A stretch of DNA of 53,488 nucleotides from Bacteroidales bacterium (GCA_029934065.1 JAOZMX010000003.1:1-53488); one strand, 5' to 3'; shown: positions 2,871-18,614, counted from the first letter of the stretch. The notes: a model not told the origin generated them from the letters alone. Numbers and translations: made by a program.

Positions 2871-4241
2871 TTAATGCAAAATATGTCGTTCGGTCAATAC
2901 ATTTTTAATGTCGTTGAAGGTGGCCGGTTTGGCCAGAATGGTACGATCCTTATAAAGTAAAAATATCGTTGGTGTGGCAAATACATCATAAGCCTCCACC
3001 ACATCTCCTTTCCATTTCTTAAAATCGCAAACGTTGATCCAGTTCAGGTTGTTATTTTTGACGAACCCTTCGAGATCTTCTTTGGTATCGTCCAGCGAAA
3101 CGGCCAAAACCTGTAATGTGTCCTTGTTTACGGATTGATACAAACCGGCCAGTTGCGGAACAATGTTGGTGCAATGGGGACACCAGGTAGCCCAGAATAC
3201 CAGAAGCATATATTCCGAAGGCACTTCCGACAACGTCACCTCATTACCGTCGAGGTCGGTAGCGGTGAAATCCGGTGCTTTTTTGCCCACGGCAAATTTC
3301 TTCAGGCTTTCCACCTTTTTCTCCAGAGTGGCTTTTCGTTCGCTGTTTTCGCAGGTGGTCTCCAGATCAATGTTATCGGCAATGTAGGTGATAACCCTTT
3401 CAAATCCGTAGCTTTCAAACCCATTGATCAGAAAATCCATGGCAAATTCGTAAATCTCCTGATTCACTTTCGTCTCTTCCATGATCACTTTTACCGCTTT
3501 GATGAACTCCAGTTGCAGCATGTCTTTGCTTAACCTGTTGTTTTGATACAGTGAAAGGTATTGAAGTATTTTTCCCGAAATCACATCGCTGTACAACATG
3601 GCGGTGTCGCTGAAATCCATCCTGTCGAAAAAATGTGCCCTGACGTAATCAATTCGTTGCATGCCGATAACCGACGATGGCGGAATGGGCGAGAAATCCA
3701 TGTTGATGTAACCCGCCGTAAAGGTTGTTTTGTTTTGCTCCGTCAGCCCGTTGACGAAATCAATAAATTCGGTACGAAGCGTATCATACTTTTGACAGGC
3801 GATTTTGTAAAACGGATCGTCGGAGGGATAATCCGAAATGAATTGCGACAGCAAATGGGTTTTGTAATCTGTAATATTGCGCCGGTTCATGTATTCATAA
3901 TAAAGCTTGTTTTCGTCCGACTGCAAAAATACCAGACTGTCAATGATATGATTGATGTTGGTGGTAAAGACAATGTTTTCCCGGTTAAAGATCACATCAA
4001 TGAAAATATTTTTGTTGAGCCGCAAACGGTACATGCCGGTTTGAACATCCGGAGCAAAAGAATATTCGAAATAGCCGACATCGTTGACAGGGATAGAATC
4101 GAAAGCTTTCTGTTCGGTGCCGTAAAAACCCGAAATGCCGATCTTTCCGGCCTGAAGCCCCCGAACGGTTCCTTTGAGTTGAAAATCCTGTGACTGAAGC
4201 ACCAAAGGGAAAAGTAAAAATAAAAGAAGTGTTTTTTTCAT
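2871..4241 (-). CDS. TlpA/AhpC-TSA-like thioredoxin-fold protein with N-terminal Bacteroidota domains
   Basis: Signal peptide; C-terminal GKKAPDFT...FWATWCPHC...VSLD...TPTIFLL redoxin fold. Confidence 0.85.
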   Translation of the reverse strand: MKKTLLLFLLFPLVLQSQDFQLKGTVRGLQAGKIGISGFYGTEQKAFDSIPVNDVGYFEYSFAPDVQTGMYRLRLNKNIFIDVIFNRENIVFTTNINHIIDSLVFLQSDENKLYYEYMNRRNITDYKTHLLSQFISDYPSDDPFYKIACQKYDTLRTEFIDFVNGLTEQNKTTFTAGYINMDFSPIPPSSVIGMQRIDYVRAHFFDRMDFSDTAMLYSDVISGKILQYLSLYQNNRLSKDMLQLEFIKAVKVIMEETKVNQEIYEFAMDFLINGFESYGFERVITYIADNIDLETTCENSERKATLEKKVESLKKFAVGKKAPDFTATDLDGNEVTLSEVPSEYMLLVFWATWCPHCTNIVPQLAGLYQSVNKDTLQVLAVSLDDTKEDLEGFVKNNNLNWINVCDFKKWKGDVVEAYDVFATPTIFLLYKDRTILAKPATFNDIKNVLTERHILH

Positions 4242-4286
4242 CTGTTGTATTTCTTGTTTTAGAATGTGAAATGATAAAAGGGAGCT

Positions 4287-4790
4287 TTAATGTTTCATGG
4301 CCTTATAAATGTATATGCCCAATATGGCGGAGATCAATACGACGAAAACGAGAACAAACCATGTTCCCAGTCCGTTTTGCTTTCCCGATGCGGAATGGAC
4401 GATCGCATAAGAGAGATAAGCAAAAAATGAGGTGGAAAATGCGTTCAGTATTCTGATGAGTCTGCAAGCCATTTTGTATTGTACGTATGCATTTTCGGCC
4501 GTGATGGGTTTGGGGTAATTGAAAATATGAGGATAACGGCTCAAAACGACAAGCGAAATATAAATGACGATGCCCACAACGGAGAGCAGCCAAATCATGT
4601 TACTGTTACCGAAAGCGTCGGGCTTGCCGTCTATTCCGTAATGAACCGGGATGGTATCGGGCAGCGCTGCGAAATGGGCAATGGGAAAAGCGATTAAAAA
4701 AACTACGGCTGCCAGCCCGATGAGCTCAAAAAGCCAATCCACCGGTTCTTTGACGATGGTCAGTTTCGGTCTTTCTTCGTTTTTTTTCAT
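4287..4790 (-). CDS. DUF1648 membrane protein
   Basis: LPDTIPVHYGIDGKPDAFG signature plus about four hydrophobic segments. Confidence 0.8.
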   Translation of the reverse strand: MKKNEERPKLTIVKEPVDWLFELIGLAAVVFLIAFPIAHFAALPDTIPVHYGIDGKPDAFGNSNMIWLLSVVGIVIYISLVVLSRYPHIFNYPKPITAENAYVQYKMACRLIRILNAFSTSFFAYLSYAIVHSASGKQNGLGTWFVLVFVVLISAILGIYIYKAMKH

Positions 4791-4791
4791 C

Positions 4792-6939
4792 TTATTTTAG
4801 ATAATCATTAAAATATCCGGTGATTTTTTCGAAGAGGTGAACCCTTGCTTTGCCGCGCATATTGTGTCCTGCCCCCGGATACACAAAATAATCCACCTGT
4901 TTCCCTTTTTTGATACATTTGTCGAGGAAGGTCAGGCTGTTTTGCCACATCACTACCGGATCGTTGGTGCCGTGGATAATCAACAGCTTCCCCTGAAGCT
5001 GATCAACGTAATTCAGGACGGAAGCCTTTTTGTACCCATCGGGATTTTCCATGGGAGTGTCCATGTACCGTTCGCCATACATCACCTCGTACCATTTCCA
5101 GTCAATGACCGGCCCGCCGGCACAGGCCACTTTGAATACATCCGGATGACGCAAAAAAAGCGATGTAGTCATAAAACCGCCGTAGCTCCAGCCGTCCACG
5201 CCGATACGTGTTGTGTCCACATAGCCGAGCGATTTCAGGTACTTCACACCGGCCATCTGGTCGGCCATTTCTTTTTCGCCGCACTGGCGGTGGATGATGC
5301 TTTCGAAGGCAAATCCCCTGTTGGCCGAACCCCTGTTGTCGAGCGTAAAAATAACATATCCCTGCTGGGCCATGTAATTCAGCCAGAACCCGGCACCACC
5401 CGTCCACGTATTGTTGATGAGTTGTGCATGCGGCCCGCCATAAACATAGACAATAGCCGGATATTTTTCCGCCGGGTTGAAATCCGCAGGTTTGATCAGC
5501 CGGCAATACAAATCCGTTGTACTGTCGTCGGCCTTGATCGTAAATATTTCCATCTCGCCCACTTTGTAATCTTTCCACGGATCAACATCCGTAAGAAGCG
5601 TGTCGAGAACTTCACCTTTGTTATTCATCAGATAGTAAGCACGGGCCATCCCGGTGCTGCTGAATATATCCATAAAATACTCCATGTTTCCGGCCCCTTT
5701 TATCCGGTGCGTACCTGCCGTTTGTGTAAGCCGTTTGGTTTTTCCGTTTTTAATTGAAGTTTGATAAAGCTGACGTTCAATGGGACTGGCCTGGGTGGAA
5801 AGGTAATAAACATATTTCTCATCCGGGTCGAAACCCGGAAAATCCGTCACTTCCCATTCTCCCTGTGTGAGTTGACTGATCAGTTCACCATTTGTATCAT
5901 AAAGGTAAAGATGGTTCCATCCGTCACGGCGGCTTTGCCAAATAAATCTGTCGGGTTGATTTTTCAGGAATACGGGGCTGTGCTGCGGCTCGACGTACTT
6001 ATCGTTGCTTTCTTCGAAAAGGGTTTTAACAAGTTTTCCCGTCAGCGCATCGTATTTGTTCATCAGAAGGTGGTTCTGGGCGCGGTTGAGCAAGGCGACA
6101 TAAATATACCGGCTTTCCGGGCCCCAGCATACTGATGTAAGGTATTGGTTTTCGGGCCCTGTGATGCGGAGGTGTGTGTTTTCATTCAATGCGGGATTAA
6201 AGATTTCCATGCTCACTTTCTGGCTTTTCATACCCGCCATGGGATATTTGATGGGATCGGCTTTGGCTTCCCGGTGAAAAATATCCACCAGCGGATAATC
6301 GCCCACCTCGCTCTGATCAATAACATAATAGGCCAGCAACTTCCCGTCGGGCGACCAGAACGAACCGTTCTCGATGCCGAATTCATTCCGTGAAGGAATA
6401 TGACCGGAAAGAATATCGGGGTCGTCCCGGTCGGTAACCTGCATCACTTCTCCGTCAATGGATACAAACAGATTGTTGTCAACAGTGTAAGCCACCGAAA
6501 GCGACGAGGGCTCCACTTCAAGGTTTTCGGCCGTTTCGGGGTATTCATTGGTTTTATTCAATGTGGAATCCGAAAGGTTGTAAATAAAGATTTTGTGGTC
6601 GTGTGTAAAATAAAACTCACTGGCATCTTTCCATGTTATTCCCGGAAAACGTTTCAATTCATCCAGCCCGGCCGTTTTTCCGGCAGCATTCAGCCCGGAA
6701 AGGTGCAGCAAAGTATCCGCATGATCCGGATTGCCGGCGGCTTTGGTGATCAAGGCATTGTTTTCAACAAATGAATACTGATCGGTGCCGGGCACCCACC
6801 TGAGGTTCGATACCGATTCGGGATAAAGATCCCAATTCATATAGTCGTCAAGGGTAAAGTATTTTTCCTGGGCAGGTGCAAGGACGGGAATAACCGTCGC
6901 CATGAGCAGAAATAAGAATAACCGTAGTTTCATTTTCAT
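4792..6939 (-). CDS. S9B dipeptidyl peptidase IV / prolyl tripeptidyl peptidase-like protein
   Basis: DPP-IV N-terminal propeller (FWSPDG, KYPMAG), VYGGPHAQ, GWSYGG, YGERYMDTP, HGTNDPVV, GAGHNM. Confidence 0.92.
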   Translation of the reverse strand: MKMKLRLFLFLLMATVIPVLAPAQEKYFTLDDYMNWDLYPESVSNLRWVPGTDQYSFVENNALITKAAGNPDHADTLLHLSGLNAAGKTAGLDELKRFPGITWKDASEFYFTHDHKIFIYNLSDSTLNKTNEYPETAENLEVEPSSLSVAYTVDNNLFVSIDGEVMQVTDRDDPDILSGHIPSRNEFGIENGSFWSPDGKLLAYYVIDQSEVGDYPLVDIFHREAKADPIKYPMAGMKSQKVSMEIFNPALNENTHLRITGPENQYLTSVCWGPESRYIYVALLNRAQNHLLMNKYDALTGKLVKTLFEESNDKYVEPQHSPVFLKNQPDRFIWQSRRDGWNHLYLYDTNGELISQLTQGEWEVTDFPGFDPDEKYVYYLSTQASPIERQLYQTSIKNGKTKRLTQTAGTHRIKGAGNMEYFMDIFSSTGMARAYYLMNNKGEVLDTLLTDVDPWKDYKVGEMEIFTIKADDSTTDLYCRLIKPADFNPAEKYPAIVYVYGGPHAQLINNTWTGGAGFWLNYMAQQGYVIFTLDNRGSANRGFAFESIIHRQCGEKEMADQMAGVKYLKSLGYVDTTRIGVDGWSYGGFMTTSLFLRHPDVFKVACAGGPVIDWKWYEVMYGERYMDTPMENPDGYKKASVLNYVDQLQGKLLIIHGTNDPVVMWQNSLTFLDKCIKKGKQVDYFVYPGAGHNMRGKARVHLFEKITGYFNDYLK

Positions 6940-6959
6940 TTTCGTTTGATTATTAATGG

Positions 6960-7889
6960 TTATGTGTTCATGTCTTTGGCGGAAATGCCGAAAATTTCAT
7001 CCTTTTCAACATTCCCGATCGGTTCAATATGTACAACAACGTCATACACATTGTGAATATTCTTTTTCAGTTCCTGTTCGAGATTACGGGCGATCTGATG
7101 CGCATCGCCAACATTCAGAACGGGATCCACTTCAATATCGAGACCGATTACGTACATGTTGGCCAGTTTTCTCACCCTGACCCGGTGCGGGTTGTTTGCA
7201 CCGCGAACCTGTTCGACCGCATTGAATATTTTAGTGTAGATTTGTTGGTCGCTCACTCCGTCCATCAGTTCCACGTTGGTTTCCATAAAAATGTCGTATC
7301 CGCTTTTCATGATCCATAGGCTGATCAGCAGGGCAAATACGGAATCAATGACCGGCATTTTCAAACCGATGGTAAGTATCAGGCCAAGAAGTACCGAAAG
7401 CGAGATGACCACATCGTTGCGCATGTTCTTGCCGTTAGCAATCAGCATCGGGCTTTCTATTTTACGGCCTGTTTGCAGTAGATAATACGAAAGTGCCGCT
7501 TTGGCAAAAACCGAGAGTATAATAACATAAACGGCGATGGTTTCCGGGATCACTGTGCTGCCGCCCTCAACAAGTTTTTTAACGGTGGAGATGGCCAGTT
7601 GGGCTCCGGCAAAGAAGATGACGAACGACAAGGCCTTGGCGGCAATAGTGTCGGCTTTACGATAACCGTACGGGAATTTCATGTCGGGTGGTTTGGAGAT
7701 GATCCGTGCCGTAAAGAGTGTGATCAGCGAGGTGACGATGTCGCCGGCCGAATCAAGACCGTCGCCCACTACTGCCAGTGAACCCGCGATGAGACCGACG
7801 GCAATTTTCAATACCGCCAGTCCCGCATTGCCTCCCACTGCAATCCATGATGCCCTGATGATTTTTGATGTTCGTTGTTTATCGTTCAT
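6960..7889 (-). CDS. Cation diffusion facilitator (FieF-like) transporter
   Basis: GSLAVVGDGLDSAGD, PPDMKFPYGY, C-terminal dimerisation domain VVVHIEP. ATG at 7889 preferred over TTG at 7901. Confidence 0.9.
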   Translation of the reverse strand: MNDKQRTSKIIRASWIAVGGNAGLAVLKIAVGLIAGSLAVVGDGLDSAGDIVTSLITLFTARIISKPPDMKFPYGYRKADTIAAKALSFVIFFAGAQLAISTVKKLVEGGSTVIPETIAVYVIILSVFAKAALSYYLLQTGRKIESPMLIANGKNMRNDVVISLSVLLGLILTIGLKMPVIDSVFALLISLWIMKSGYDIFMETNVELMDGVSDQQIYTKIFNAVEQVRGANNPHRVRVRKLANMYVIGLDIEVDPVLNVGDAHQIARNLEQELKKNIHNVYDVVVHIEPIGNVEKDEIFGISAKDMNT

Positions 7890-8006
7890 GTTATTTGTCA
7901 AAATCGAGGTAAAAGTAGGAAAAATAAAAGGATAAGAAATGTATGGATTTTTCGCCCTGAAAAAATTTATTGATTTTTCAGCTTATCCCGTTTGGATGTA
8001 TCAGAA

Positions 8007-9584
8007 TCACCACCATTTTTGCCCGCCGTTTTCATTCACCGTAAAGATGCGTTCCTCTTTGTTTGAACCGGTTTTAACAAGCCATAAGAGTGCATTTTCC
8101 GGAGCGTCAAAACACAAGGGCTTTGTCGTTGCGGCAGTTGCCTTGCCAATGCTTTTCCATTCGTTATCCCAGTAAAACAACTCATAGAGTGCTCCGTTTT
8201 CGAAAGCAGCTTCCCTGATTTCATCGGTGGCTTTTACAATGGCGCGACGTGTTGTGGAATACAGCTTGATGGGATGGTAATGAAGCGTATCGGCACACAG
8301 TGTGATGCGGCTTCCCGAATCCGTTAAGATGAAAGGATGGGCTGCCGGAATCAGCTTGCCGTTTTTATAATACGCCGGCAGGTAAACAATATCGCCGCCC
8401 ATATCCGTAAATACCGTCTTTTTGTCGTTGATTTTTCCCCAGTGTATGGCTTTCCATTCGCCCGAATTGAAAACGCACAGATAAGCATAATGAACACTGT
8501 CGGGCGGAGCGAAAAGCAACGGCACACCAACCTGAAACACGGGGATATAATTTTTTGTGACATCCGTGTAATTTTTTCCTGACAGCCAGCGCGGCACCTT
8601 TTCGTATGAAGGTTTCAGCATGGCAAGACAGCTATCCTGCCGGGCAAAAGTCTTACGGTAAACCTTGGCTTTTTTGTTGTTGAGTTTGTATTCACCCGGA
8701 TTATCTCCGTCGCCCATAAAGATAACCACCTGTTTGTTTTGGTCAAGGAGGGCATTCCACGCATGATTGTTTCCTGTGTTGGGCCAGGCCGGTGTGTAGT
8801 CGCTCATCACTGCAATGCCCTGTGCCCGCATGGCATAAATGGCAAGATTTGTCATGTCTTCACAACGCCCCCTTCCGTATTCCAGCATTTCGTCGAGCCC
8901 GAGATCGGTGGGATGCCGGTAAAAAAGCGGATCGAAACGATACCATCCTTTGAGGTCGTCGTTGATCAGGCATGCTGCCTCCACCGGGTCTGCGGGTGTT
9001 TGAACGGAATCCTGTACCCAGCGATATTTGTCATAAAAATAGCCACGCCACGATTCCAAAGGCTCGTTGCTGCCCCGGTAAGGTAAAACATATTCGCAAA
9101 ACTCATCGAAAGTAAGAGATTCAGCCCAGGGCTTTTTCCACGCTTCAAAGGCAAGGTCAATATTTTCGGTAAGAAAATCGTAGGTTATGGTTTCAAGGTC
9201 CTCGATTACCGTGTCGCGTTCAAAATCCATCGCACCGATTTGTGCTTCTGCTGAATCCCATGCTGCAACCATGGTTTGATAATCGGGGTAGGAAAGCACT
9301 GTAAAATCTACCGGACGGCCCGCTGTATCCACCAGTTTCGCTCGCACATAATCATGCCCCTCCATGTTGCCGATAAGAAAATATGCTGCTTTTAACTTTA
9401 ACGAATCACCGGGGTTTTCTGCGTAGTGCGCAATTACCTGCTCCAATGTTTGCCGGTTTTCTTTGGCATTATTCAGCGCATTTTCCACTTTTTCGGGATA
9501 ATGTTGCCGGAAAGAACATCCGGCTGTAAAAAGTAATAGTAAGGATAAAACCCAAATAATTTTTTTGTATTGATTATTTTTCAT
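8007..9584 (-). CDS. Transglutaminase-like domain lipoprotein
   Basis: Lipobox LLFTAGC, FDEFCEYVLPYR..NEPLESWR, catalytic GRCED, NHAWNA. Confidence 0.8.
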   Translation of the reverse strand: MKNNQYKKIIWVLSLLLLFTAGCSFRQHYPEKVENALNNAKENRQTLEQVIAHYAENPGDSLKLKAAYFLIGNMEGHDYVRAKLVDTAGRPVDFTVLSYPDYQTMVAAWDSAEAQIGAMDFERDTVIEDLETITYDFLTENIDLAFEAWKKPWAESLTFDEFCEYVLPYRGSNEPLESWRGYFYDKYRWVQDSVQTPADPVEAACLINDDLKGWYRFDPLFYRHPTDLGLDEMLEYGRGRCEDMTNLAIYAMRAQGIAVMSDYTPAWPNTGNNHAWNALLDQNKQVVIFMGDGDNPGEYKLNNKKAKVYRKTFARQDSCLAMLKPSYEKVPRWLSGKNYTDVTKNYIPVFQVGVPLLFAPPDSVHYAYLCVFNSGEWKAIHWGKINDKKTVFTDMGGDIVYLPAYYKNGKLIPAAHPFILTDSGSRITLCADTLHYHPIKLYSTTRRAIVKATDEIREAAFENGALYELFYWDNEWKSIGKATAATTKPLCFDAPENALLWLVKTGSNKEERIFTVNENGGQKWW

Positions 9585-9598
9585 CACAATAATTTTAA

Positions 9599-12373
9599 TT
9601 ATTCAAAAACAGGTAAAACACATTGGTTGTCAACATTCTTCAATAAAGTTTTAAAATCTTCTTTCAGGCTTCTTCGCATGATGGCAGAATTTTCGTCGTG
9701 GCAGGTAAGACAAGCCCCCACGGTGAGGATTCGTTTTTGTTCTTCGATGGTAAAAGGCCGGAAATCAGGGCGTGTGGAATGTGAAAAAACATTGTTGTAA
9801 AACGTTTTGTTTTCTGCAAATCCGAAAGGCACCCACGCATCTTCCGGCAAACCGTCGTTGGGATTGTCGGCATATTTCGAAACAAATGTCCATGCCGGTT
9901 TCCCATGGCCGGCCAGTTGAAGTACCCCTTCGCCGTATCCCAAAGCCAGCGGGTCGTTATGGCACGATTTGCAGCTTCTTCCTTTTTTCATGATGGTATG
10001 TGGTGCTGCTGGTGCATAAAGGCGATGAAACAACAACGGCTCTTCATCTCCTCCTTCCGGGTAACTTTTCAGGTCAATCGTCAGAATCATTCCGGGGATG
10101 GCAGGTTGAACGGATTTTTGTTTCCCGTCGTCAAAAACTCCGAGTGCAGGTGGGAGTGCTGCATATTCGCCGGTGTATTCAACCCAAGTTCCCTTTTTGA
10201 ACCGGTTGGTTAACATGTCGTATCCTTGGGTTTCGGGTTCGTAAACATTATGACAACCGATGCAACGGGGGGCCCAGGCAGTATGACATGCACTGCAACT
10301 TACATCCTTGTGTGGCCCGCCGCGTGTACATTTTTCGGAGGGAGGTACCAATTGAAAAACCTTACCCGTATTTTTGCCTGTCAGTATTACCGAGTCGTCA
10401 TCAACCAAAAATGTATTCACCAGCGGCCATCCCGATTTTCCAACGGTGAGCATTCTCCCGGAAAGCGTATCCCAATGTCTTAATTTCAGGATTTTTCCGG
10501 ATTCCCCGTCAACGGCGTCGCTTGAAACGGTTTGCGGCAATTCATCAAAATGGCAGTCTTCGCATCTGATCTGTACCTGTTGTTCTTCATGCCGGTAAAA
10601 ATTTCCGTCGCCCATTGTTTCGTAGCCGCTGTGACAATCAATGCAGTTGAGCCCTGCCTGATGGTGAACATCGTCGGCAACGTGAACAAATACCCTGTCG
10701 TCCTGCAGCAAACGGTACCCCGGTTTCCCGGCCACCTCTTCGGCGGTCTTTTGTGTTTCGTGCCACCCTTCGTAATTGGTTGAGATCCTTCCCGACCGGC
10801 TGTGGCAACCGAAACAACGGCTGTCGGGGATGTTGAGGGTCAAAGCGGGATGCACACCGGGGCCGGGCAGGCTGTCTCCTTTGAATTTCGAATATCCGGC
10901 ATGAGCTGCCAGTGCTTTGTCGCTGTAGTTCAAATGGCAGGCGTTGCATCCACCTCCTCTGGAAAGTTCGTCAACCGGGCCTGTTGCCGTTTTCGGATTC
11001 CCAAGGTGGCATATCACACAAAGGTTTTTCAGGTGTTCGTCGGCGGCGGAATTTGTCAGGTGATGCACGTTGTTGAGTGCCGAAAGCGAATCGCATTCCC
11101 CGAAAACAAAACGGTCAACGGTGATCATGCCGCTGATGGTGGTCATCAGTGTAGTGTTGATGCGCCGGGTGACTTCGGGATGGCAGGCCGCCGTGCCGCA
11201 ACTCTTTCCCGCATCCGTCAGATTTCCCGGAATAAGGCGCATATTTTTGTGTGCCCTGTTTTTATCAATAGTAAACGAATTGCCTCCGTGGCATGAGACG
11301 CAACCCAGGGCTTGCGGGTCGTGCGACGGTGAGAAGCCTTTCATGTCGTCATGGCAGATCATGCATCCCTCGGCCCGGCCGTTAACAACAGGCACTCCCT
11401 GCGCAGGCAATTCTTCAATCCGTTCGCCGAATGATACGGGCCGGAACGAAAATGCCTCCGGCAAATAGTCCCCGCCGCCATCCCAGGGTGTCCGCCATTG
11501 CTGGTTTTCACCCCTGAAAAACCATCCAACCACCGTAAACCCGAGATAAAGATAAAACCCGAAAAGAATTGTCTTTTTCAATATTTTCGAATAATTCCCG
11601 GAAACGTACGGGAGAACACCAAGCATCAGCAGGAAGAGGAACATGATGACTAGCGACAAACCGGGAAGAGGTAGCCAATGGAGAATCTCCTGCAAACCGA
11701 CGAAGTACCATGGGCCTCTCATAATATTGTTTAAATTTTCACCCAGCGGAGCACCGAACAGCCAGCTTATTGCCAGAATTGTCAGTAGGGTGTAAATAAA
11801 TGTCTTTGTCTTTCCGTAAATGGTTCCCGAATGCTCGATAATGATGATGAAAAGGAAAATGGTTGCCGTTGCAATATGATGTACATAGATCAGTTGAAGA
11901 CCATTCCCGTTGCCAAACAGAGAAAATGCCAGCAGGTTGCCGGCAAGGGGGATTTGGGAAATAAGGCTTTGCATGATCTGTCTTGCCTGCGTTGCGTCGT
12001 TGTCCGCTTTTAGAATAAAGCCGGTGATCATAACAAATAACGCCACCAAAACCGAGACGGTCAGCCGCAGCCACACACCATATTTTACTTTTTTCTCGCC
12101 GGAGCGTTTCAGGTGATCCCAGATGTGTAAAAATGTGAAGACAAGAAAAAACTGTGCACTCCAGTAATGAATGTTCCGGATGAATACGGCATACGGGTTG
12201 AGGATAAGCATGGCCCCCAGCGATTGGTATGCGGCTTTTACATCGTAAGGTATGGCAAGAAATATCCCGCTGACGACGGCAATGAAAAAAGCAGCCAAAG
12301 CAATGGCTCCGAAAGTGTTCTCACGAAAAAACGTTTTTATTTCAGTTAGTCGTAGCCCCACGGTTTTTTTCAA
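9599..12373 (-). CDS. Cytochrome b (Rieske/cytb type, ~7 TM) fused to a C-terminal multiheme cytochrome c domain (11 CxxCH + 1 CX4CH)
   Basis: Helix B RNIHYWSAQ...LHIW and helix D HH...EH heme-b ligands, Qo-like RGPWYF. Heme-c motifs: CMICH, CVSCH, CGTAACH, CVICH, CNACH, CFGCH, CIDCH, CEDCH, CSACH, CIGCH, CKSCH, CLTCH. The TTG start overlaps the Rieske stop. Confidence 0.9.
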   Translation of the reverse strand: MKKTVGLRLTEIKTFFRENTFGAIALAAFFIAVVSGIFLAIPYDVKAAYQSLGAMLILNPYAVFIRNIHYWSAQFFLVFTFLHIWDHLKRSGEKKVKYGVWLRLTVSVLVALFVMITGFILKADNDATQARQIMQSLISQIPLAGNLLAFSLFGNGNGLQLIYVHHIATATIFLFIIIIEHSGTIYGKTKTFIYTLLTILAISWLFGAPLGENLNNIMRGPWYFVGLQEILHWLPLPGLSLVIMFLFLLMLGVLPYVSGNYSKILKKTILFGFYLYLGFTVVGWFFRGENQQWRTPWDGGGDYLPEAFSFRPVSFGERIEELPAQGVPVVNGRAEGCMICHDDMKGFSPSHDPQALGCVSCHGGNSFTIDKNRAHKNMRLIPGNLTDAGKSCGTAACHPEVTRRINTTLMTTISGMITVDRFVFGECDSLSALNNVHHLTNSAADEHLKNLCVICHLGNPKTATGPVDELSRGGGCNACHLNYSDKALAAHAGYSKFKGDSLPGPGVHPALTLNIPDSRCFGCHSRSGRISTNYEGWHETQKTAEEVAGKPGYRLLQDDRVFVHVADDVHHQAGLNCIDCHSGYETMGDGNFYRHEEQQVQIRCEDCHFDELPQTVSSDAVDGESGKILKLRHWDTLSGRMLTVGKSGWPLVNTFLVDDDSVILTGKNTGKVFQLVPPSEKCTRGGPHKDVSCSACHTAWAPRCIGCHNVYEPETQGYDMLTNRFKKGTWVEYTGEYAALPPALGVFDDGKQKSVQPAIPGMILTIDLKSYPEGGDEEPLLFHRLYAPAAPHTIMKKGRSCKSCHNDPLALGYGEGVLQLAGHGKPAWTFVSKYADNPNDGLPEDAWVPFGFAENKTFYNNVFSHSTRPDFRPFTIEEQKRILTVGACLTCHDENSAIMRRSLKEDFKTLLKNVDNQCVLPVFE

Positions 12374-12765
12374 TCAATGATAATTTTATTGTTTTCCAGC
12401 TTAAACGGAAGTTGCTGTAAATTTTCCGTTGCGGGGCCATTCTCCGGCTCCCCGTTAATATTAAATGCCGAGCCGTGGCAGGGACAAACCAGGTTCCCTT
12501 CCTTGTTGAGGCTTTTGATCGTACAGCCGAGATGGGTGCAACGCGAGGAAAAAACAGTTAATTTGTCGTTTCTCCGGACGATGATGACCCGGCCGAAAAA
12601 AGAGACGCCTTCGGGAACATCAGCCGGCAGCACCATGCGATTTGGAGTTCCGGAACGGGTTGCTCGTTTAACCAGCATTACCCACAACCAAAAAAAAAGG
12701 ATGGAAAGGGCACCCCACAGATATTTTAAAAAAATTTTTCTCGGTATTTTTTTTGTCTCTTCCAT
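12370..12765 (-). CDS. Rieske [2Fe-2S] subunit of a Rieske/cytochrome b complex
   Basis: CTHLGC and CPCHGS boxes; Tat-like RKIFLK followed by one TM helix. Confidence 0.92.
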   Translation of the reverse strand: MEETKKIPRKIFLKYLWGALSILFFWLWVMLVKRATRSGTPNRMVLPADVPEGVSFFGRVIIVRRNDKLTVFSSRCTHLGCTIKSLNKEGNLVCPCHGSAFNINGEPENGPATENLQQLPFKLENNKIIID

Positions 12766-12785
12766 TGGCAAAAATCAATGAGTGC

Positions 12786-12793
12786 CAAAAGTA
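12786..12793 (-). promoter_or_regulatory. Bacteroidota -7 box (TACTTTTG) for the Rieske-cytb operon
   Basis: TAnnTTTG match 20 nt upstream of the Rieske ATG. Confidence 0.55.
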
Positions 12794-12932
12794 CAAATCA
12801 TTTTCGGACAGCAACTAAACAGACAAAAATGAAATTTATATTCTTTCCAAATTATTATTTTAATCTGTTGAAATAGCGTGTTTTAAAAACCAACATCATT
12901 TTTTGATTTTTTAACAAAATGGTCGTATTGTT

Positions 12933-12966
12933 TTGATTCACAATGAATTTTCATTCAATGAATCAA
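12933..12966. promoter_or_regulatory. Nested inverted repeat, candidate operator between the divergent promoters
   Basis: TTGATTCA...TGAATCAA outer arms enclosing AATGAA-TT-TTCATT. Confidence 0.4.
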
Positions 12967-13003
12967 TCTGGTGATTAAAATTCGTTTTTTGCAAAAAAGT
13001 AAG

Positions 13004-13011
13004 TATGTTTG
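13004..13011 (+). promoter_or_regulatory. Bacteroidota -7 box (TATGTTTG) for the psr operon
   Basis: TAnnTTTG match ~42 nt upstream of the psrA ATG. Confidence 0.55.
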
Positions 13012-13053
13012 CATTGACCTATTTACATATTCATCATACTAAATTTAATATTG

Positions 13054-15318
13054 ATGACAACACGACGAGATTTCATTAAGGTCGTAACGGCAGGTACAGG
13101 AGCTGCAGCATTAGGGTTAAGTGTTCTTGATGTGAAGGGGATGGGAAGTATTTTCGGGGGTGATGAACCGGAACCTGTAAGTGACACCAAACTAAAGCGA
13201 TATCCGACTTATTGCGAGGTGTGTTTTTGGAAATGCGCAGGCTGGACATATGTTGACGACAAAGGAGCGATTAAAAAGATCCTCGGCAACAAAGAGGACC
13301 CGCATTGCAACGGGCGATTGTGTCCGCGCGGGACAGGTGGAATAGGCATGTATTATGATGAGGATCGACTGAAGACGCCGTTGATCCGTGAAGAAAAAGA
13401 CGGTAAGCAGTATTTCAGGGAAGCCTCATGGGAAGAAGCCCTTGAATTGACCGCCAGGCGGTTGAAGGAGGTGGCGGAGAGACATTCGCCGGAATGCATT
13501 GCATTGTTCAACCACGGTTCGGGCGGGAAATATTTCGGGACGCTGCTCAAGGCTTTCGGCTCGGAAAATATTGCCGCTCCGTCGTTTGCCCAGTGCCGCG
13601 GGCCGCGCGAAACCGGCTGGATCGCCACTTTCGGACAGGCGGTAGGATCGCCCGAGCCCACCGATATCCGCGATACCAACTGCCTTGTGCTCATTGGCTC
13701 ACATCTCGGCGAGAACATGCACAACGGGCAGGTACAGGAGATGTCGGAGGCCATCGAACGCGGCGCAACCATTATCACCGTTGACCCGAGGTTTTCAACT
13801 GCAGCAAGCAAATCAAAGTATTGGTTGCCCATCAAACCGGCGACGGATATGGCTTTGCTGTTGGCGTGGATACACGTACTGATCTATGAAGAGATTTATA
13901 ACAAGAAATATGTGGAAAAATATACCTACGGGTTCGACTTGCTGAAAGAACATGTGAAAGATATGACGCCGGAATGGGCTTACGGTATTACAACCATCGA
14001 GCCGGCTGTGATCAGGAAGACGGCACGCGAGATGGCCGATGCCGCACCCTCGGTCATTGTTCATCCCGGAAGGCATGTCACCTGGTATGGCGACGACACC
14101 CAGCGTACCCGTGCCATTGCCATTCTCAATGCCTTGCTCGGCTCATGGGGCAACCGCGGTGGTTTTTACATGAGCGAAAAGGTACACATTCCCCATCAGA
14201 AACTGCCGCCGTTTCCCAAACCCAAGCGAACCTGGCGTGATGCATTTCCGGGACAATACAAGCTGGCCAGCCTCGCCCTCTCCTCGGGGATTTGCGATGC
14301 CACCATCCCCACCGACGACAGGGATTGCTCTTTCAAAGCGTGGATCGTTTCGGGGACCAACCTGCCATTGACATTACCCAATAAAAAGAATACCCTCGAA
14401 GCCATCTCGCACCTTGAGTTCATAGTGGTCATTGATACCATGCCCATGGAGATCACCGGTTATGCCGATGTGATCCTGCCCGAATGTACCTACCTTGAAA
14501 GGTATGACCTGCTTCGCACCTCGGGACATCGCGAGCCGTACATCGCCCTGCGTATGCCGGCAGCCGAACCCAAATACAATACCAAACCGGGATGGTGGAT
14601 CGCCAAAAATCTGGCCAATAAACTCGGATTGGGGGAATATTTCCCGTACGACGATATTACCGAGGTTTTGGACTGGCAACTGAAGCAGATGGGCTCTTCG
14701 CTGGAAGAGATGAAGAAGATCGGTGTGAAAAAATTCGACCGTCAGGAAGGAGGGCTTTATTTCCAGGAAGGCGAGGACATTGAATTCAATACTCCAACCG
14801 GGAAGATCGAACTTTGGTCCAACGAAATGGCCGCAGAGAATTATGATCCCATGCCTGTTTATACACCTCATCCCGAACCGGAAGAGGGCTTTTACCGCCT
14901 GATCTACGGCCGTGCGCCCATGCATACCTTCAGCCGTACATCCAACAACCACAATCTCTGGGATTTGAAAAAGGAAAATGAAGTATGGGTTAATCCCAAA
15001 GTTGCCAAGTTGTGGGATTTGAACAACGGCGACAAGGTCTGGCTCAAAAATCAGGATGGCATTGTCTCCTCTTTTCCCATCAAGGTCAGGGTTACCGAAC
15101 GCATTCGTTGGGATTCGGTGTACATGGTGCATGGCTTCGGCCATTCCGACAAATTTCTGACACGGGCATACGGCCATGGCGCCAACGATTCCGAGCTGAT
15201 CACCAATGTGATGATCGACCCGGTGATGGGAGGAACCGGAATGAGGGGGAATTTTGTGACATTTTTAAAAGAAAAACCGAAAAATATGGAAAATTCAGGG
15301 AAGGAGGTTAAAGCATGA
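13054..15318 (+). CDS. psrA: Polysulfide/thiosulfate reductase catalytic molybdopterin subunit (PsrA/PhsA family)
   Basis: Tat signal TRRDFIK, [4Fe-4S] motif CEVCFWKC...LCPRG, Mo-ligand region PSFAQCRGPR, ADVILPECTYLER, HTFSRT; followed by PsrB/PsrC-like genes. Confidence 0.85.
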   Translation: MTTRRDFIKVVTAGTGAAALGLSVLDVKGMGSIFGGDEPEPVSDTKLKRYPTYCEVCFWKCAGWTYVDDKGAIKKILGNKEDPHCNGRLCPRGTGGIGMYYDEDRLKTPLIREEKDGKQYFREASWEEALELTARRLKEVAERHSPECIALFNHGSGGKYFGTLLKAFGSENIAAPSFAQCRGPRETGWIATFGQAVGSPEPTDIRDTNCLVLIGSHLGENMHNGQVQEMSEAIERGATIITVDPRFSTAASKSKYWLPIKPATDMALLLAWIHVLIYEEIYNKKYVEKYTYGFDLLKEHVKDMTPEWAYGITTIEPAVIRKTAREMADAAPSVIVHPGRHVTWYGDDTQRTRAIAILNALLGSWGNRGGFYMSEKVHIPHQKLPPFPKPKRTWRDAFPGQYKLASLALSSGICDATIPTDDRDCSFKAWIVSGTNLPLTLPNKKNTLEAISHLEFIVVIDTMPMEITGYADVILPECTYLERYDLLRTSGHREPYIALRMPAAEPKYNTKPGWWIAKNLANKLGLGEYFPYDDITEVLDWQLKQMGSSLEEMKKIGVKKFDRQEGGLYFQEGEDIEFNTPTGKIELWSNEMAAENYDPMPVYTPHPEPEEGFYRLIYGRAPMHTFSRTSNNHNLWDLKKENEVWVNPKVAKLWDLNNGDKVWLKNQDGIVSSFPIKVRVTERIRWDSVYMVHGFGHSDKFLTRAYGHGANDSELITNVMIDPVMGGTGMRGNFVTFLKEKPKNMENSGKEVKA

Positions 15319-15848
15319 GATACGCAATGGCCATAGATACCACGAAATGCGTGGGGTGTGGTGACTGTGTGGTTGCCTGCCAGACCGAAAATAATGTGCC
15401 GCACGGATATTGCCGCGACTGGATCGTGGAAAACGTTGCCGGCACCTATCCCAACGTGGAGATTGAATTGCGGTCGGAACGATGCAACCACTGCGATAAT
15501 GCACCCTGTGTGAGATGTTGCCCCACAGGCGCCAGCCATATCGTTGAAGGCGGGATCGTGATGGTAACACACGAGGAATGTATCGGTTGCGGCGCCTGCA
15601 TCGAATCCTGTCCTTACGATGCGCGGTATTCCCATCCCGAAGGATATGTGGATAAGTGTACTTTCTGCAAACACCGGATCGACAACGGTCAGTTGCCGGC
15701 CTGCGTTGAGGTGTGTCCTACAAAATGCCTCTATTTCGGCGACCTCGACGATCCCAACTCCGATGTGTCGAAAGCACTGCAAAACCGGAAATGGAAAGTG
15801 CTGGCTCCCGAAGCAGGAACAAAACCACAACTCTATTTTCTTACCTGA
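15315..15848 (+). CDS. psrB: 4x[4Fe-4S] electron-transfer subunit (PsrB/NrfC family)
   Basis: CVGCGDCVVAC, CNHCDNAPCVRCCP, CIGCGACIESCPY, KCTFC...PACVEVCP; ATGA overlap with psrA. Confidence 0.88.
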   Translation: MRYAMAIDTTKCVGCGDCVVACQTENNVPHGYCRDWIVENVAGTYPNVEIELRSERCNHCDNAPCVRCCPTGASHIVEGGIVMVTHEECIGCGACIESCPYDARYSHPEGYVDKCTFCKHRIDNGQLPACVEVCPTKCLYFGDLDDPNSDVSKALQNRKWKVLAPEAGTKPQLYFLT

Positions 15849-15872: not shown

Positions 15873-16814
15873 ATGAAAGAAGAATTATTTGTCAGCGGTC
15901 GTGATATTCCCAATATCGATCCGTATCTGAACATTTGGCATTGGCAAATCCCGCTTTACCTCTTTCTCGGGGGTCTGGCCGCCGGAATCTTGTTTTTTGC
16001 CGGTTATTACACCATTTTGCGCAAAGAAAAAGAGATGGAAGCCACGGTGAAATGGGCTCCGTTTCTGGCGCCTTTCGCACTGGTGCTGGGCTTGTTTGCC
16101 CTGTTTCTCGACCTGAAGCACAAACTCTATTTCTGGCAGCTTTACACCACGGTGCGTTTCACTTCTCCCATGTCGTGGGGAGCATGGACGCTGATGCTCA
16201 TCACACCCATTTCTTTTATCTGGGCTGCAAGTTACATCAAAGAAGTGTTCCCCAAATGGGACTGGAAATTTGATGTTCTTAACAGGTTCGAGGCGTATAT
16301 CATCAAAAACCGTAAAGGGATTGCGTGGATCATGATGATCCTTGCTGTCATTCTCGGCGTTTATACCGGAATACTTCTTTCGGCGTTCAACGCACGGCCT
16401 TTGTGGAACACCTCCATACTGGGGCCGCTGTTCCTCGTCTCGGGACTCTCCACGGGGCTGGCAGCCATCATGCTGATGTCAAAAAGCAAGTACGAACGCA
16501 AAGTGGTAAGCCGGCTCGATCTGATCATGATCGCCGTCGAACTGTTTCTGATCATTCACCTGTTCATGGGTTTTTTGGCCGCTTCGGAAGTGCAGGTGGA
16601 AGCTGCAGCCCTGTTCCTCGGCGGAGACTTCACCGCGGTTTTCTGGATTTTCGTCATTTTCCTCGGACTTGTTTTCCCGGCCGTACTCGAGGTACTTGAA
16701 CTTCGGGGATACCATATCCCTGTATGGATTCCGGCGGTGTTGATTCTTATAGGAGGACTCGTTTTCAGATTTGTAATGGTTGAAGCCGGCCAAATAACGC
16801 GGTTTTTATATTGA
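15873..16814 (+). CDS. psrC: NrfD/PsrC family membrane anchor (quinone-interacting)
   Basis: WHWQIPLYLFLGGLAAG, LFLDL, TSPMSWGAW, YTGILLS...RPLWN; about 8 TM helices. Confidence 0.88.
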   Translation: MKEELFVSGRDIPNIDPYLNIWHWQIPLYLFLGGLAAGILFFAGYYTILRKEKEMEATVKWAPFLAPFALVLGLFALFLDLKHKLYFWQLYTTVRFTSPMSWGAWTLMLITPISFIWAASYIKEVFPKWDWKFDVLNRFEAYIIKNRKGIAWIMMILAVILGVYTGILLSAFNARPLWNTSILGPLFLVSGLSTGLAAIMLMSKSKYERKVVSRLDLIMIAVELFLIIHLFMGFLAASEVQVEAAALFLGGDFTAVFWIFVIFLGLVFPAVLEVLELRGYHIPVWIPAVLILIGGLVFRFVMVEAGQITRFLY

Positions 16815-16836: not shown

Positions 16837-17376
16837 ATGAATAAAAACACAAAGATTAAAAACGGGCCAAGGTACATCAACCCTTATCTCGGAGGTATTT
16901 TGCTCGGCCTGTTGCTGCTGGCCACATTTTTTATTGCCGGACGCGGCCTGAGTGCCAGCGGGGCGGTCAAACTTTCCATCGTGACCATCGTTGACAAGAT
17001 CGCGCCGTCGCATGCCATGGCCAACGGATATTACAGCAAATTCATCCCTGCCGACGGCTCTTCGCCATTGTTCAACTGGTTGATATTTGCCGCCATCGGC
17101 ACTTTTTTCGGAGGGATGTTATCAGGAGCGATTTTCGGGCGACTTAAAAAATTCAGGATTGAGCACGCGCCCACCGTCTCCTCAAGAACACGCATCATCG
17201 CCGCCATCATCGGAGGTATTCTCTTCGGCATCGGAAGCCAGTTTGGCCGCGGTTGCTCCAGTGGCGCCGCATTGAGTGGCACCGCTTCTTTTTCATTTGG
17301 CGGTCTGATCGTGATGCTGCTGATGTTCGGCATCGGATACGCCTTTGCTTATTTCTTCAGAAAATTATGGATATAA
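16837..17376 (+). CDS. YeeE/YedE sulfur-compound transporter, half-size subunit 1
   Basis: NPYLGG, GRGLSASG, GGILFGIGSQFGRGCSSG (GCxSG motif). Confidence 0.85.
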   Translation: MNKNTKIKNGPRYINPYLGGILLGLLLLATFFIAGRGLSASGAVKLSIVTIVDKIAPSHAMANGYYSKFIPADGSSPLFNWLIFAAIGTFFGGMLSGAIFGRLKKFRIEHAPTVSSRTRIIAAIIGGILFGIGSQFGRGCSSGAALSGTASFSFGGLIVMLLMFGIGYAFAYFFRKLWI

Positions 17377-17391
17377 TTAAAAATTGACGAT

Positions 17392-17997
17392 ATGGGACCT
17401 TTAATTCCTCAGGGATATATCACAGGACAATGGGAATTTGTCATCGCCCTTTTGATCGGGGCGGCTTTCGGCTTTTTGCTCGAATCCTCGGGATTTTCTT
17501 CTTCAAGAAATATCGCCGGCGTCTTTTACGGATACAATTTTGTGGTGCTCCGTGTATTTTTTACGGCGATGATCGTGGCCATGGTCGGGCTGTTGTATTT
17601 CGACTACCTCGGCTGGATTGACATGAGCATGGTATTTGTACTGCCCACCTTTCTTGCGCCGATGCTGCTCGGCGGTTTCATCATGGGGCTTGGGTTTGTC
17701 ATCGGCGGCTTTTGCCCCGGAACCAGTTACACCGCATGCGCCATCGGAAAACTCGACGGGTTTGCTTTCCTCGGTGGTTTCTTTCTCGGGGTATTCCTCT
17801 TTTCCGAGGCTTTTCCGTTGTTCGAAAAGTTTTATTACTCGGGAGATATGGGAAACATCACCATCGGCGAAGTGCTGCATGTGTCCGACAGGGTGGTTGC
17901 TTTTGCTTTTGTTGTCATCGCCATCGCGGCTTTTTATGTGACCTGGCTTATTGAAAAGAAAGTCAGAGCAAACAGAACAGAATCAAAATTTGAATAA
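17392..17997 (+). CDS. YeeE/YedE sulfur-compound transporter, half-size subunit 2
   Basis: GAAFGFLLESSGF and LGGFIMGLGFVIGGFCPGT motifs. Confidence 0.85.
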   Translation: MGPLIPQGYITGQWEFVIALLIGAAFGFLLESSGFSSSRNIAGVFYGYNFVVLRVFFTAMIVAMVGLLYFDYLGWIDMSMVFVLPTFLAPMLLGGFIMGLGFVIGGFCPGTSYTACAIGKLDGFAFLGGFFLGVFLFSEAFPLFEKFYYSGDMGNITIGEVLHVSDRVVAFAFVVIAIAAFYVTWLIEKKVRANRTESKFE

Positions 17998-17999
17998 TC

Positions 18000-18614
18000 A
18001 TGAATAAGAATTATTTATTTCTTTCGCTTTTGATGATATTGCTGGCAGGCGGGTTGTTGTTGCTCCCCGACAGGACGAATTATTCACAAATCCCGCCCGA
18101 AGATCTGTTGTGGGATATTATCCAGCCCACGCGTTATGTTACCACCGAACAGGTGGCAAAGATGATCATCGAACAGGATCCCACGCTTGAACTGATTGAC
18201 GTGAGGGATGCCGATGCCTTCAAAGCTTTTTCGCTGCCCAACGCCGTCAACATTCCGTTGGATAGCCTGTTGTCGCCAAACTATTCCGATTATCTCGGCA
18301 TCGAAGACATGAACGCCGTTTTTTACGCCAACGACGACATGCTGGCCGATCAGGCCTGGGTGATTGCCAAAAGACTGAACTATTCGGGAATTTATGTCAT
18401 GAAAGGCGGCCTCAACTGCTGGATAAAAACCATCATTCAGCCTGCACCGCCGCCCGAAACCGCCTCACTCGACGCGTTCGATCTTTACGATTTCAGAAAA
18501 GGAGCCAGCATATACTTTACGGGCAAAACCATTACGGCGCCCAAATCCGATAACAAATCCAAAGTTATTGTCCGCAGAAAGAAAAAAACCAAAGCCACTG
18601 CCGGCGGTTGTTAG
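18000..18614 (+). CDS. Membrane-anchored rhodanese-like protein lacking the canonical active-site Cys, with a C-terminal GGC tail
   Basis: N-terminal TM; LIDVR..F...SLPNAVNIP; active-site loop VFYANDD; MKGGLNCW; ends RRKKKTKATAGGC. Confidence 0.85.
   Translation: MNKNYLFLSLLMILLAGGLLLLPDRTNYSQIPPEDLLWDIIQPTRYVTTEQVAKMIIEQDPTLELIDVRDADAFKAFSLPNAVNIPLDSLLSPNYSDYLGIEDMNAVFYANDDMLADQAWVIAKRLNYSGIYVMKGGLNCWIKTIIQPAPPPETASLDAFDLYDFRKGASIYFTGKTITAPKSDNKSKVIVRRKKKTKATAGGC

Follow-up and report, generated by a model that had tools for sequence, protein, structure and literature searches.

In a 53,488-nucleotide stretch of a marine Bacteroidales genome (GCA_029934065.1, JAOZMX010000003.1:1-53488; hereafter the window, in whose coordinates all positions are given) we analysed a gene that joins a cytochrome b to a multiheme cytochrome c domain with 12 heme sites. 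Together with a Rieske protein from the gene directly upstream, the fusion protein probably forms a menaquinol oxidase core that feeds the reduction of sulfur or selenium compounds in the periplasm. The module is best explained as the counterpart, in fused form, of the Geobacter ExtO-ExtP-ExtQ-ExtM (Cbc6) complex in Bacteroidota and Ignavibacteriota. Among energy-conserving quinol oxidases, Rieske/cytochrome b complexes are the textbook case, and variants with multiheme partners are known from genomes. The fusion family is likewise widespread and catalogued, so that the interest lies in its link to sulfur respiration and in an Otr-type core within the heme domain rather than in the fusion as such. 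The result is a testable hypothesis of the path by which electrons from quinol arrive at periplasmic sulfur reductases and of whether this step conserves energy, and culturable carriers exist in Mangrovibacterium lignilyticum and Rosettibacter primus.

The fusion gene is a single uninterrupted open reading frame (ORF) of 924 amino acids (aa) with a TTG start, running on the minus strand from 9599 to 12373. Positions 9599-11400, to which a preliminary description of the window had assigned a cytochrome b fused to a multiheme domain, are the 3' two-thirds of this frame. That description was accurate as to the motifs: a scan located 11 CxxCH sites (residues 337, 358, 452, 476, 520, 577, 604, 693, 704, 801, and 888) and a single CX4CH site, CGTAACH, at residues 392-398. 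All 12 heme motifs lie downstream of residue 336, and not one cysteine precedes residue 337. Only six open frames with at least eight CxxCH were returned by a six-frame scan of the 3.64 Mb genome, which places a cluster of 12 sites far from chance. Past residue 330 there are 18 histidines outside the motifs, in keeping with the earlier suggestion that extra histidines might serve as distal ligands. The window holds no cytochrome c maturation genes, as had been noted; a search of the whole genome matched the CcsA and ResB profiles (PF01578 and PF05140) only on contig C28, both in a single frame of 1044 aa with the appearance of a fused CcsBA and hence of System II maturation.

The N-terminal third of the protein matches Cytochrome_B in Pfam (E 5.6e-11) and cytochrome b6 chains in the PDB (E about 1e-7). 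Its b-heme ligands, which form pairs on helices B and D, are spaced as in cytochrome b6, with H69 and H83 14 residues apart and H166 and H181 15 apart; across 48 aligned sequences H69 and H166 never vary, and at least 90% retain H83 and H181. Since this part lacks cysteine altogether, it has no heme ci site. An AlphaFold2 model of residues 1-330 (pLDDT 90.0, pTM 0.88) contains seven long helices (21-40, 60-89, 98-120, 160-182, 189-205, 237-256, and 260-286), matching the earlier estimate of about seven. Simple hydropathy calls six of them, helix B, which bears heme-ligand histidines, falling under the threshold used. The model superposes on full-length bc1 cytochrome b (best match 8e73_O, E 4e-8, TMq 0.64, ~310 columns; 66 matches at E<=1e-3), indicating that equivalents of both cytochrome b6 and subunit IV, the latter being helices E-G, are present. 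The N-terminus of cytochrome b is cytoplasmic, and seven helices therefore place the heme domain on the periplasmic side, as the preliminary description had argued, where it occupies the position of the separate cytochrome c1 or f of canonical complexes.

At the Qo site the fusion protein carries GPWY (residues 220-223) instead of the PEWY of bc1 and b6f complexes; among 58 family ORFs, 50 have GPWY and four GPWF. The second subunit is best explained as the Rieske protein encoded by a translationally coupled upstream gene, whose stop codon (TGA) and the start codon of the cytochrome b gene (TTG) overlap as ATTGA. Both cluster boxes of this protein, CTHLGC and CPCHGSAF, are intact, and it has a Tat-like motif, RKIFLK. 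In 66 of 69 related loci the homolog is immediately preceded by a Rieske gene, and all 55 family Rieske proteins carry CxCHGS together with an S-F or S-Y signature. The Rieske partners of the GPWY clade of cytochrome b are of a mid-to-high-potential sequence type (PMC4122944).

The fusion is evidently a lineage-typical joining of neighbouring genes, found mainly in Bacteroidota and Ignavibacteriota. Among the 120 best matches in a collection of 5.8 billion proteins, 119 cover at least 94% of the query (883-951 aa), the exception being a 704-aa fragment (P0035). The 69 loci come from a search in which each species was represented by one genome; some belong to chromosome-level assemblies, and the two isolates named above are among the carriers. 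In the order itself the fusion gene was found in 20 of 301 sampled genomes (13 of 209 genera), and its frame is long and free of internal stops in 18 of the 19 other carriers; the last, G225, has only a fragment at a contig end. The junction (11331-11627) is bridged without indels by public contigs from two independent studies, namely those of runs X2 (record 16, covering 10431-13050), X3 (record 20, 11123-11627), and X5 (record 29, 11331-11566). A contig joint in run X1 that skips 11044-12156 was treated as spurious, its shorter side having only 23 letters. DNA near-identical to 9599-13050 occurs in metagenome runs whose labels read hydrothermal vent or marine sediment. At least half of the words sampled from this region are present in each of four runs, which come from two studies, and no RNA run is among the public runs listed for it.

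Unfused relatives are also common. Of 1407 matches (E<=1e-3) among 50%-identity representatives, the best 150 comprise 31 full and 15 partial fused proteins, 74 full and 24 partial stand-alone heme proteins, and six with cytochrome b only. In a Desulfobacteraceae metagenome-assembled genome (MAG; L062) and a Spirochaetae MAG (L063), three adjacent genes follow in the same order, Rieske, cytochrome b (306 and 313 aa, respectively), and multiheme cytochrome (704 and 655 aa). The preliminary description had asked whether homologs might normally be two genes, the fusion then being an assembly artefact, or might match a characterised family. Split forms proved common and the architecture catalogued, while the artefact did not materialise, and no biochemically characterised member turned up in the literature we searched.

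The architecture is evidently of a kind already listed, both as the GPWY clade of cytochrome b (Kao and Hunte 2014, PMC4122944) and as NCBIfam ExtP and ExtM, and the novelty implied at first sight did not hold up. NCBIfam ExtM (NF040943) covers residues 326-903 (profile positions 11-588 of 599; E 4.8e-78) at 263 bits against a cut-off of 800, and ExtP covers residues 19-181 at 64 bits against 290. With bits so far under the equivalog cut-offs, we read the protein as an ExtM-type homolog and not as an equivalog; ExtO was not among the NCBIfam matches of the window's Rieske protein. NCBIfam describes ExtM as a ‘selenite/tellurite reduction operon c-type cytochrome’ and ExtP as a b-type cytochrome of the same operon. 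In passages of PMC5877670, the Geobacter sulfurreducens cluster extHIJKLMNOPQS encodes a 12-heme 68 kDa cytochrome (ExtM), a 14-kDa Rieske protein (ExtO), a cytochrome b (ExtP), and a small membrane protein (ExtQ), with a rhodanese (ExtH) and a porin (ExtI) beside ExtMNOPQS along with ExtKL. A section of Butler et al. 2010 (PMC2825233) treats this cluster as the conserved ‘bc complex’ of Geobacter, and one of PMC10553843 names it Cbc6.

The Geobacter ExtMNOPQS/Cbc6 cluster (GSU2930-2935) and the Bacteroidales module share a small Rieske protein, a b6-type cytochrome b, a subunit-IV-like protein, and a 12-heme cytochrome, and both are associated with a rhodanese, a phosphate-porin-like protein, and a polysulfide-reductase-type enzyme. 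They differ in that the equivalents of ExtP, ExtQ, and ExtM form one polypeptide here, in the order b-IV-M, whereas the Geobacter genes run M-N-O-P-Q. The neighbouring enzyme also differs, being of the molybdenum PsrABC type here and the heme-selenocysteine MccSep in Geobacter, and the window has no counterpart of the 10-heme ExtN, of ExtS, or of ExtKL/MccSep. The Geobacter complex is itself uncharacterised.

Subunit IV-cytochrome c fusions occur elsewhere, Bacillus QcrC being an example. The firmicute and heliobacterial b6c and ‘PEWY/PDWY-cyt c’ clades (PMC4122944) resemble the present protein in carrying a c-type cytochrome on a periplasmic C-terminus after an odd number of helices, but theirs is a class I mono-heme domain combined with PEWY or PDWY and not a 590-aa dodecaheme domain combined with GPWY. 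The GPWY clade was described from Ignavibacteria, delta-proteobacteria, and Nitrospinae (PMC4122944), and our homolog searches extend it to Bacteroidota. With the present protein it has in common the GPWY motif, a serine-type Rieske partner, and an example of cytochrome b fused to a c-type multiheme domain. In that example, Ignavibacterium album (YP_005846642) that domain is described as a ‘triheme cytochrome c7 domain’ (PMC4122944), compared with 12 heme sites and Otr-type homology here. The genome paper of Melioribacter roseus reports no bc1 genes. The anammox Rieske/cytochrome b complexes (see PMC12954380) also combine a non-canonical core with multiheme c-type partners; they belong to another cytochrome b clade, have other partners, and lack a sulfur-gene context.

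None of the 12 heme sites varies among 38 fused proteins, and all are conserved among 79 fused and stand-alone relatives. At heme site 3 both cysteines and the histidine never change among the 79, and the spacing is CX4 in 61, CX3 in two, and CX2 in 16. That loops of different length can replace one another speaks against a special role of the extended motif, and CGTAACH is evidently an ordinary heme c site that differs in the length of its loop. The special heme that the preliminary description had suggested as a possibility there is not supported, plain CX2CH standing in the same column in 16 relatives. CX4CH serves bis-His hemes in c3 cytochromes, and Pfam Cytochrom_c3_2 gives a weak match to residues 336-400 (21 bits, cut-off 25). 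Candidate distal ligands, counted by conservation and not paired with individual hemes, are His 351, 375, 447, 508, 570, 595, 688, and 792 and Met 410, 587, and 762, with Met 378 conserved at ~75%. These 11-12 candidates (8 His and 3-4 Met) for 12 hemes supply the ligand count that had been proposed, and they do not pinpoint the penta-coordinate heme it was meant to find. Cys 682, Cys 918, Lys 461, and Lys 667 are conserved in addition, and SRGGGC and CHSRSGRIS are the strongly conserved motifs outside the heme sites.

Residues 308-924 were modelled with confidence by AlphaFold2 (pLDDT 91.6, pTM 0.90), and the model has a beta-rich insert at ~640-832. In the Foldseek comparison that the preliminary description had proposed, the 617-residue model had no match in the PDB at E<=1e-3 and the top rows were unrelated beta proteins; PDB sequence and profile searches gave only short NrfA/c7-like local matches. 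An exhaustive VIA-align search ranked Shewanella Otr (1sp3_A) first of 48,161 chains, over the whole chain (Z 7.3, rmsd 4.2 A, 275 residues), a match that is weak alone, as Z of 7-8 is common for models without clear relatives. The next matches (Z 3.7-4.6) are of the octaheme lineage: 4qo5, OcwA, and HAO. The Otr match is supported independently by a profile-profile comparison. In hhalign, the ExtM-type alignment matched six Otr-like proteins from related loci with a probability of 95.4 (E 1.8e-8, 134 columns), pairing ExtM-type hemes 4-8 with Otr-type hemes 2-6 and H570 (DVHH) with the histidine of Otr DVHM. The dodecaheme domain thus appears to be homologous to Otr over a five-heme core, with extra hemes added on both sides. 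This relationship is not stated in the literature we consulted for the family, and we count it as new.

The resemblance to Otr (1sp3, PF11783) consists of five consecutive heme sites, the distal histidine of DVHH/DVHM, and the best structural match of the whole domain; Otr-like genes moreover adjoin the module in eight of 55 sources (defined below). Otr differs in having eight hemes where the present domain has 12, and here the domain is tied covalently to a quinol oxidase. Pfam PF11783 is not among the Pfam matches of the fusion protein. The Otr heme aligned with ExtM-type heme 4 is heme 2, which we take to be the lysine-ligated catalytic heme of that enzyme; no conserved lysine precedes heme 4 in the ExtM-type domain at the place where Otr-like proteins have an invariant K110.

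The evidence for function comes from the genes around the module. Divergently transcribed from it are genes of a PsrABC-type molybdenum enzyme, YeeE/YedE-type transporter halves, and rhodaneses (Table 1). In tblastn searches against the 69 loci, many of which are too short to reveal more neighbours, the Rieske protein was found in 66, PsrA in 44, PsrB in 39, NrfD in 33, the YeeE halves in 31 and 30, and rhodanese in 29. We also clustered the ORFs of 55 sources longer than 11 kb (54 loci and the window, the window's own Rieske being excluded by an overlap filter). PsrA recurred in 36 of these, PsrB in 35, rhodanese in 33 (usually as two copies), and NrfD and the YeeE halves in 31 each. They were followed by a Crp/Fnr regulator (29), MobA (19), a periplasmic tandem rhodanese and a phosphate-porin-type porin (Porin_O_P; 13 each), and an Otr-like octaheme protein (PF11783; eight). 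By protein type, the tandem rhodanese and Porin_O_P found beside the module in 13 sources are like ExtH and ExtI. The loci that contain the Otr-like genes show no Psr within the flanks retrieved, except for at most an edge PsrA fragment in L057 and L058, and in six of the eight these genes are followed by a cytochrome b561-PAS gene. Apart from the Otr-like clusters, the conserved neighbours of the 55 sources include no multiheme ORF cluster. In Bacteroidales the psr-type genes are divergent, and in Melioribacteraceae (L040, L060) they follow the module on its own strand, a difference in arrangement between lineages that argues for selection on the linkage.

A PsrA ortholog (55-73% identity) is present in 91 of the 301 genomes of the order and in 19 of the 20 fusion carriers, the carrier without it being G225, whose fusion gene is the contig-end fragment. 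In 16 carriers PsrA and the fusion gene stand within ~10 kb on the same contig. This co-occurrence and the recurrence of ExtH/ExtI-like rhodanese and porin nearby are, together with the apparent Otr homology of hemes 4-8, what we count as new in this analysis.

The persistent association with clusters of the polysulfide/thiosulfate-reductase type, with rhodaneses, and with an anion porin gains weight from a recent result on Geobacter. According to Mihara et al. (Sci Adv, August 2026; PMC13510729), ExtKL, encoded just upstream of extM, is MccSep, a pentaheme selenoprotein polysulfide reductase that is essential for S0 respiration and can also oxidise methyl viologen with selenite as acceptor. 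The authors call the electron donor that serves it in the cell ‘unidentified’. The same kind of Rieske/cytochrome b/ExtM module, with rhodanese and anion porin, therefore stands beside two non-homologous polysulfide-reductase-type systems, the heme-selenocysteine MccSep in Desulfobacterota and the molybdenum PsrABC type in Bacteroidota and Ignavibacteriota. We regard this as the strongest pointer to its function.

Bacteroidota use menaquinone. We hypothesize that menaquinol is oxidised at the periplasmic-side GPWY-type Qo site following the Q-cycle scheme of bc complexes, with the 12-heme ExtM-type domain taking the place of cytochrome c1 or f. Of the two electrons, one would leave through the Rieske cluster, enter the hemes of the fused domain, and reach periplasmic acceptors; the other would cross the membrane via bL and bH, making the route electrogenic and energy-conserving. 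It would run parallel to the direct route through PsrC. The acceptors most likely belong to the sulfur/selenium-compound respiration set, neighbouring or encoded elsewhere in the genome, that comprises the PsrABC-type reductase, the rhodaneses, the YeeE-type transporter, the ExtI-like porin, and the Otr-like octahemes.

Several observations weigh against this proposal. The direction of electron flow and the partner are read from gene neighbourhood, and our literature searches found no biochemical or genetic study of any family member. The ExtM and ExtP scores lie far under the equivalog cut-offs given above. Counterparts of ExtN, ExtS, and ExtKL are missing from the window, and on contig C110 no second open frame has two or more CxxCH. 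In 19 of the 55 sources no Psr gene lies inside the fetched flanks, and the ExtI-like porin is present in only nine of the 20 carriers (44 of the 301 genomes of the order). Conversely, 72 genomes have a PsrA ortholog without the fusion gene, and PsrABC has its own quinol-binding PsrC; Psr thus does not need the module, which is an optional supplement to the Psr genes. Polysulfide and thiosulfate form couples of strongly negative potential. For these two substrates the S-F or S-Y signature of all 55 Rieske proteins, read as mid-to-high potential in PMC4122944, is awkward. A Rieske-fed branch would thus better suit tetrathionate, selenite/tellurite, or similar compounds than polysulfide.

The preliminary description had left a choice between a built-in heme wire and a catalytic multiheme, and for a genuine fusion with a periplasm-facing domain these remain the right pair of options. 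In the catalytic version, the fused domain would itself be the terminal reductase, an Otr-lineage multiheme with one open or unusually ligated heme, and with the Rieske protein it would make a self-contained menaquinol:oxyanion or menaquinol:sulfur-compound oxidoreductase whose substrate may be tetrathionate, selenite/tellurite, polysulfide, or a nitrogen oxyanion. We consider this unlikely, yet the Rieske potential, the Otr-like core, and the Otr-like neighbours keep it alive. The alignment of hemes 4-8 with Otr-like hemes 2-6 and the structural ranking, with Otr first and octaheme-lineage proteins behind it, speak in its favour. So do the invariant charged motifs CHSRSGRIS and SRGGGC, K461, and the extra C682 and C918, which suggest more than a wire; a mid- or high-potential Rieske type would fit tetrathionate or selenite. 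Conserved ligands can be counted either way, 8 His and 3-4 Met leaving room for one open site among 12 hemes, and 8 His and 4 Met sufficing to ligate all 12, with no heme shown to be ligand-free. Set against catalysis are the Z of 7.3, within the range common without clear relatives, the lack of a conserved lysine upstream of heme 4 at the place of Otr K110 and of a PF11783 match, and the two separate Otr-like enzymes already encoded in the genome. Were heme 4 to turn over a sulfur or selenium compound, an idea we hold only tentatively, this complex would be the first of the Rieske/cytochrome b type to contain its own terminal reductase, and the reduction of tetrathionate, selenite, or polysulfide would be coupled directly to a Q cycle. 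By extension, complexes of the ExtMOPQ type would supply the missing quinol-to-periplasm step of S0 respiration in Geobacter as well as in Bacteroidota.

A role in extracellular electron transfer, with the 12 hemes acting as a wire or capacitor toward insoluble Fe(III), Mn(IV), or solid S0, seems to us quite improbable. It has a precedent in Butler et al. 2010 (PMC2825233), where quinol oxidation for metal respiration was proposed to take place at the homologous Geobacter cluster, and proteomics cited in passages of PMC5877670 found Ext proteins more abundant with Fe(III). The genome also encodes an 827-aa MtrC-like cytochrome with 11 CxxCH on contig C3. However, an outer-membrane cytochrome-porin conduit stands beside the gene in none of the 55 sources, the conserved neighbours handle sulfur, and the nearby porin is of the phosphate-selective (anion) type. 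We also count against this alternative that metal reduction in Geobacter has been assigned to other inner-membrane cytochromes, ImcH, CbcL, and CbcBA.

Electron flow in the oxidative direction is a very improbable arrangement, in which electrons from sulfide, polysulfide, or thiosulfate would enter the quinone pool through the Psr-type enzyme and rhodaneses and leave it through the module toward O2 or NOx, or in which the complex would run backwards. High-potential acceptors would suit the mid- to high-potential Rieske signature, and the GPWY-clade Rieske proteins were grouped with the APWY clade, APWY being read as typical of reverse-working complexes (PMC4122944). The occurrence of the stretch in hydrothermal vent and marine sediment runs and a quinol-type NorB in the window point the same way. 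Nevertheless, the sole experimentally studied homologous cluster serves S0 reduction, and Crp/Fnr-family regulators, typical of anaerobic respiration, accompany the module in 29 of the 55 sources. No cytochrome-c-dependent oxidase or Sox genes were seen beside the module, a genome-wide search for them not having been made. Finally, an assembly or frameshift artefact joining two genes, for which the split forms in other phyla (L062, L063) and the common stand-alone ExtM-like proteins might be cited, is ruled out by the single open frame, the full-length fused homologs from many assemblies, the intact frames in 18 other genomes of the order, and the bridging contigs of two studies.

Table 1 Features of the Rieske/cytochrome b-dodecaheme module and its divergent neighbours (positions in the window)
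Feature	Position	Strand	Evidence
Rieske [2Fe-2S] subunit, 133 aa, N-terminal membrane anchor	12370..12771	-	Pfam PF00355 E 6e-14
Cytochrome b part, residues 1-300, b6 and subunit IV equivalents, 7 transmembrane helices	11474..12373	-	Pfam Cytochrome_B E 5.6e-11
Qo-site motif GPWY, residues 220-223, replacing PEWY	11705..11716	-	sequence
ExtM-type dodecaheme domain, residues 331-924	9602..11383	-	NCBIfam NF040943 E 4.8e-78
Heme site 3, CGTAACH (CX4CH)	11180..11200	-	motif scan
Hemes 4-8 (C452, C476, C520, C577, C604), Otr-homologous core (predicted)	10550..11020	-	hhalign, VIA-align
Divergent intergenic (promoter) region, Rieske/cytochrome b versus psr-type operons	12772..13050	.	sequence
PsrA/PhsA-type molybdopterin catalytic subunit, twin-arginine TRRDFIK	13051..15318	+	Pfam Molybdopterin; NCBIfam PhsA 461 bits versus cut-off 694
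PsrB-type 4Fe-4S subunit	15315-15848	+	Pfam Fer4_11
PsrC/NrfD-type membrane quinol-binding subunit	15873-16814	+	Pfam NrfD
Two half-size YeeE/YedE-type sulfur (or selenium) transporter genes	16837..17997	+	Pfam Sulf_transp; weak NCBIfam TsuA/YedE
Two tandem membrane-anchored rhodanese genes	18000-18614, about 18568-19200	+	Pfam Rhodanese

The divergent promoter region contains a nested palindrome at 12933-12966, TTGATTCA-N18-TGAATCAA with the inner repeat AATGAA-AA-TTCATT, a possible regulator site. A scan for FNR boxes (TTGAT-N4-ATCAA, at most two mismatches) gave a single two-mismatch match near the operon starts, at 12765-12778, where it straddles the Rieske start codon; across the window there were 59 matches versus 44.5 expected, a modest excess. 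On the other side of the module, a transglutaminase-like gene (8007-9587), as well as a CDF transporter and an S9 peptidase, were dropped from the system, as none of the 69 loci keeps them. Within the porin match, five of the 44 porin-bearing genomes (G263, G238, G118, G283, and G093) have a single in-frame TGA, which may reflect pseudogenes, errors, or recoding.

Related gene sets occur elsewhere in the genome. Contig C164 (5527-13646, minus strand) encodes a Rieske protein (144 aa), a cytochrome b (347 aa), and an octaheme protein (508 aa, PF13447) directly upstream of napA, two NapG/H-like FeS genes, and napB. A multiheme-equipped unit beside a periplasmic molybdenum reductase is thus a repeated design in this genome. 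The napA gene of C164 is split into two ORFs (9332-10531 and 7740-9311), possibly by a frameshift or sequencing error. On contig C32 (9-3889), a cytochrome b of at least 366 aa, cut by the contig end, is followed by a Rieske protein (171 aa) and a 752-aa protein with eight CxxCH and TPR and HEAT repeats. One of the two Otr-like enzymes of the genome is encoded on contig C158, where positions 3621-11024 hold a Crp-family regulator, an Otr-like octaheme protein (539 aa, C-terminal anchor), a cytochrome b561-PAS protein, two rhodaneses, Porin_O_P, and a tandem rhodanese, a cluster resembling ExtH/ExtI with a tetrathionate-reductase-type enzyme. The second Otr-like gene is on C96. The 827-aa cytochrome of contig C3 (1045-4434) shows weak similarity to domains II/IV of MtrC/MtrF, adjoins a TerB-DnaJ gene of tellurite-resistance type, and has short stretches in common with the heme domain of the fusion protein.

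Farther along the window, positions 28701-30947 (minus strand) encode a quinol-type nitric oxide reductase-like protein, with COX1 and a NorB cytochrome-c-like N-terminal domain. At 36248-47053 (minus strand) lie the genes of two very large proteins of the gingipain type (Peptidase_C25; 1995 and 1561 aa), each with a C-terminal sorting domain for type IX secretion, and an M14 carboxypeptidase at 19633-22947 shares this sorting domain.

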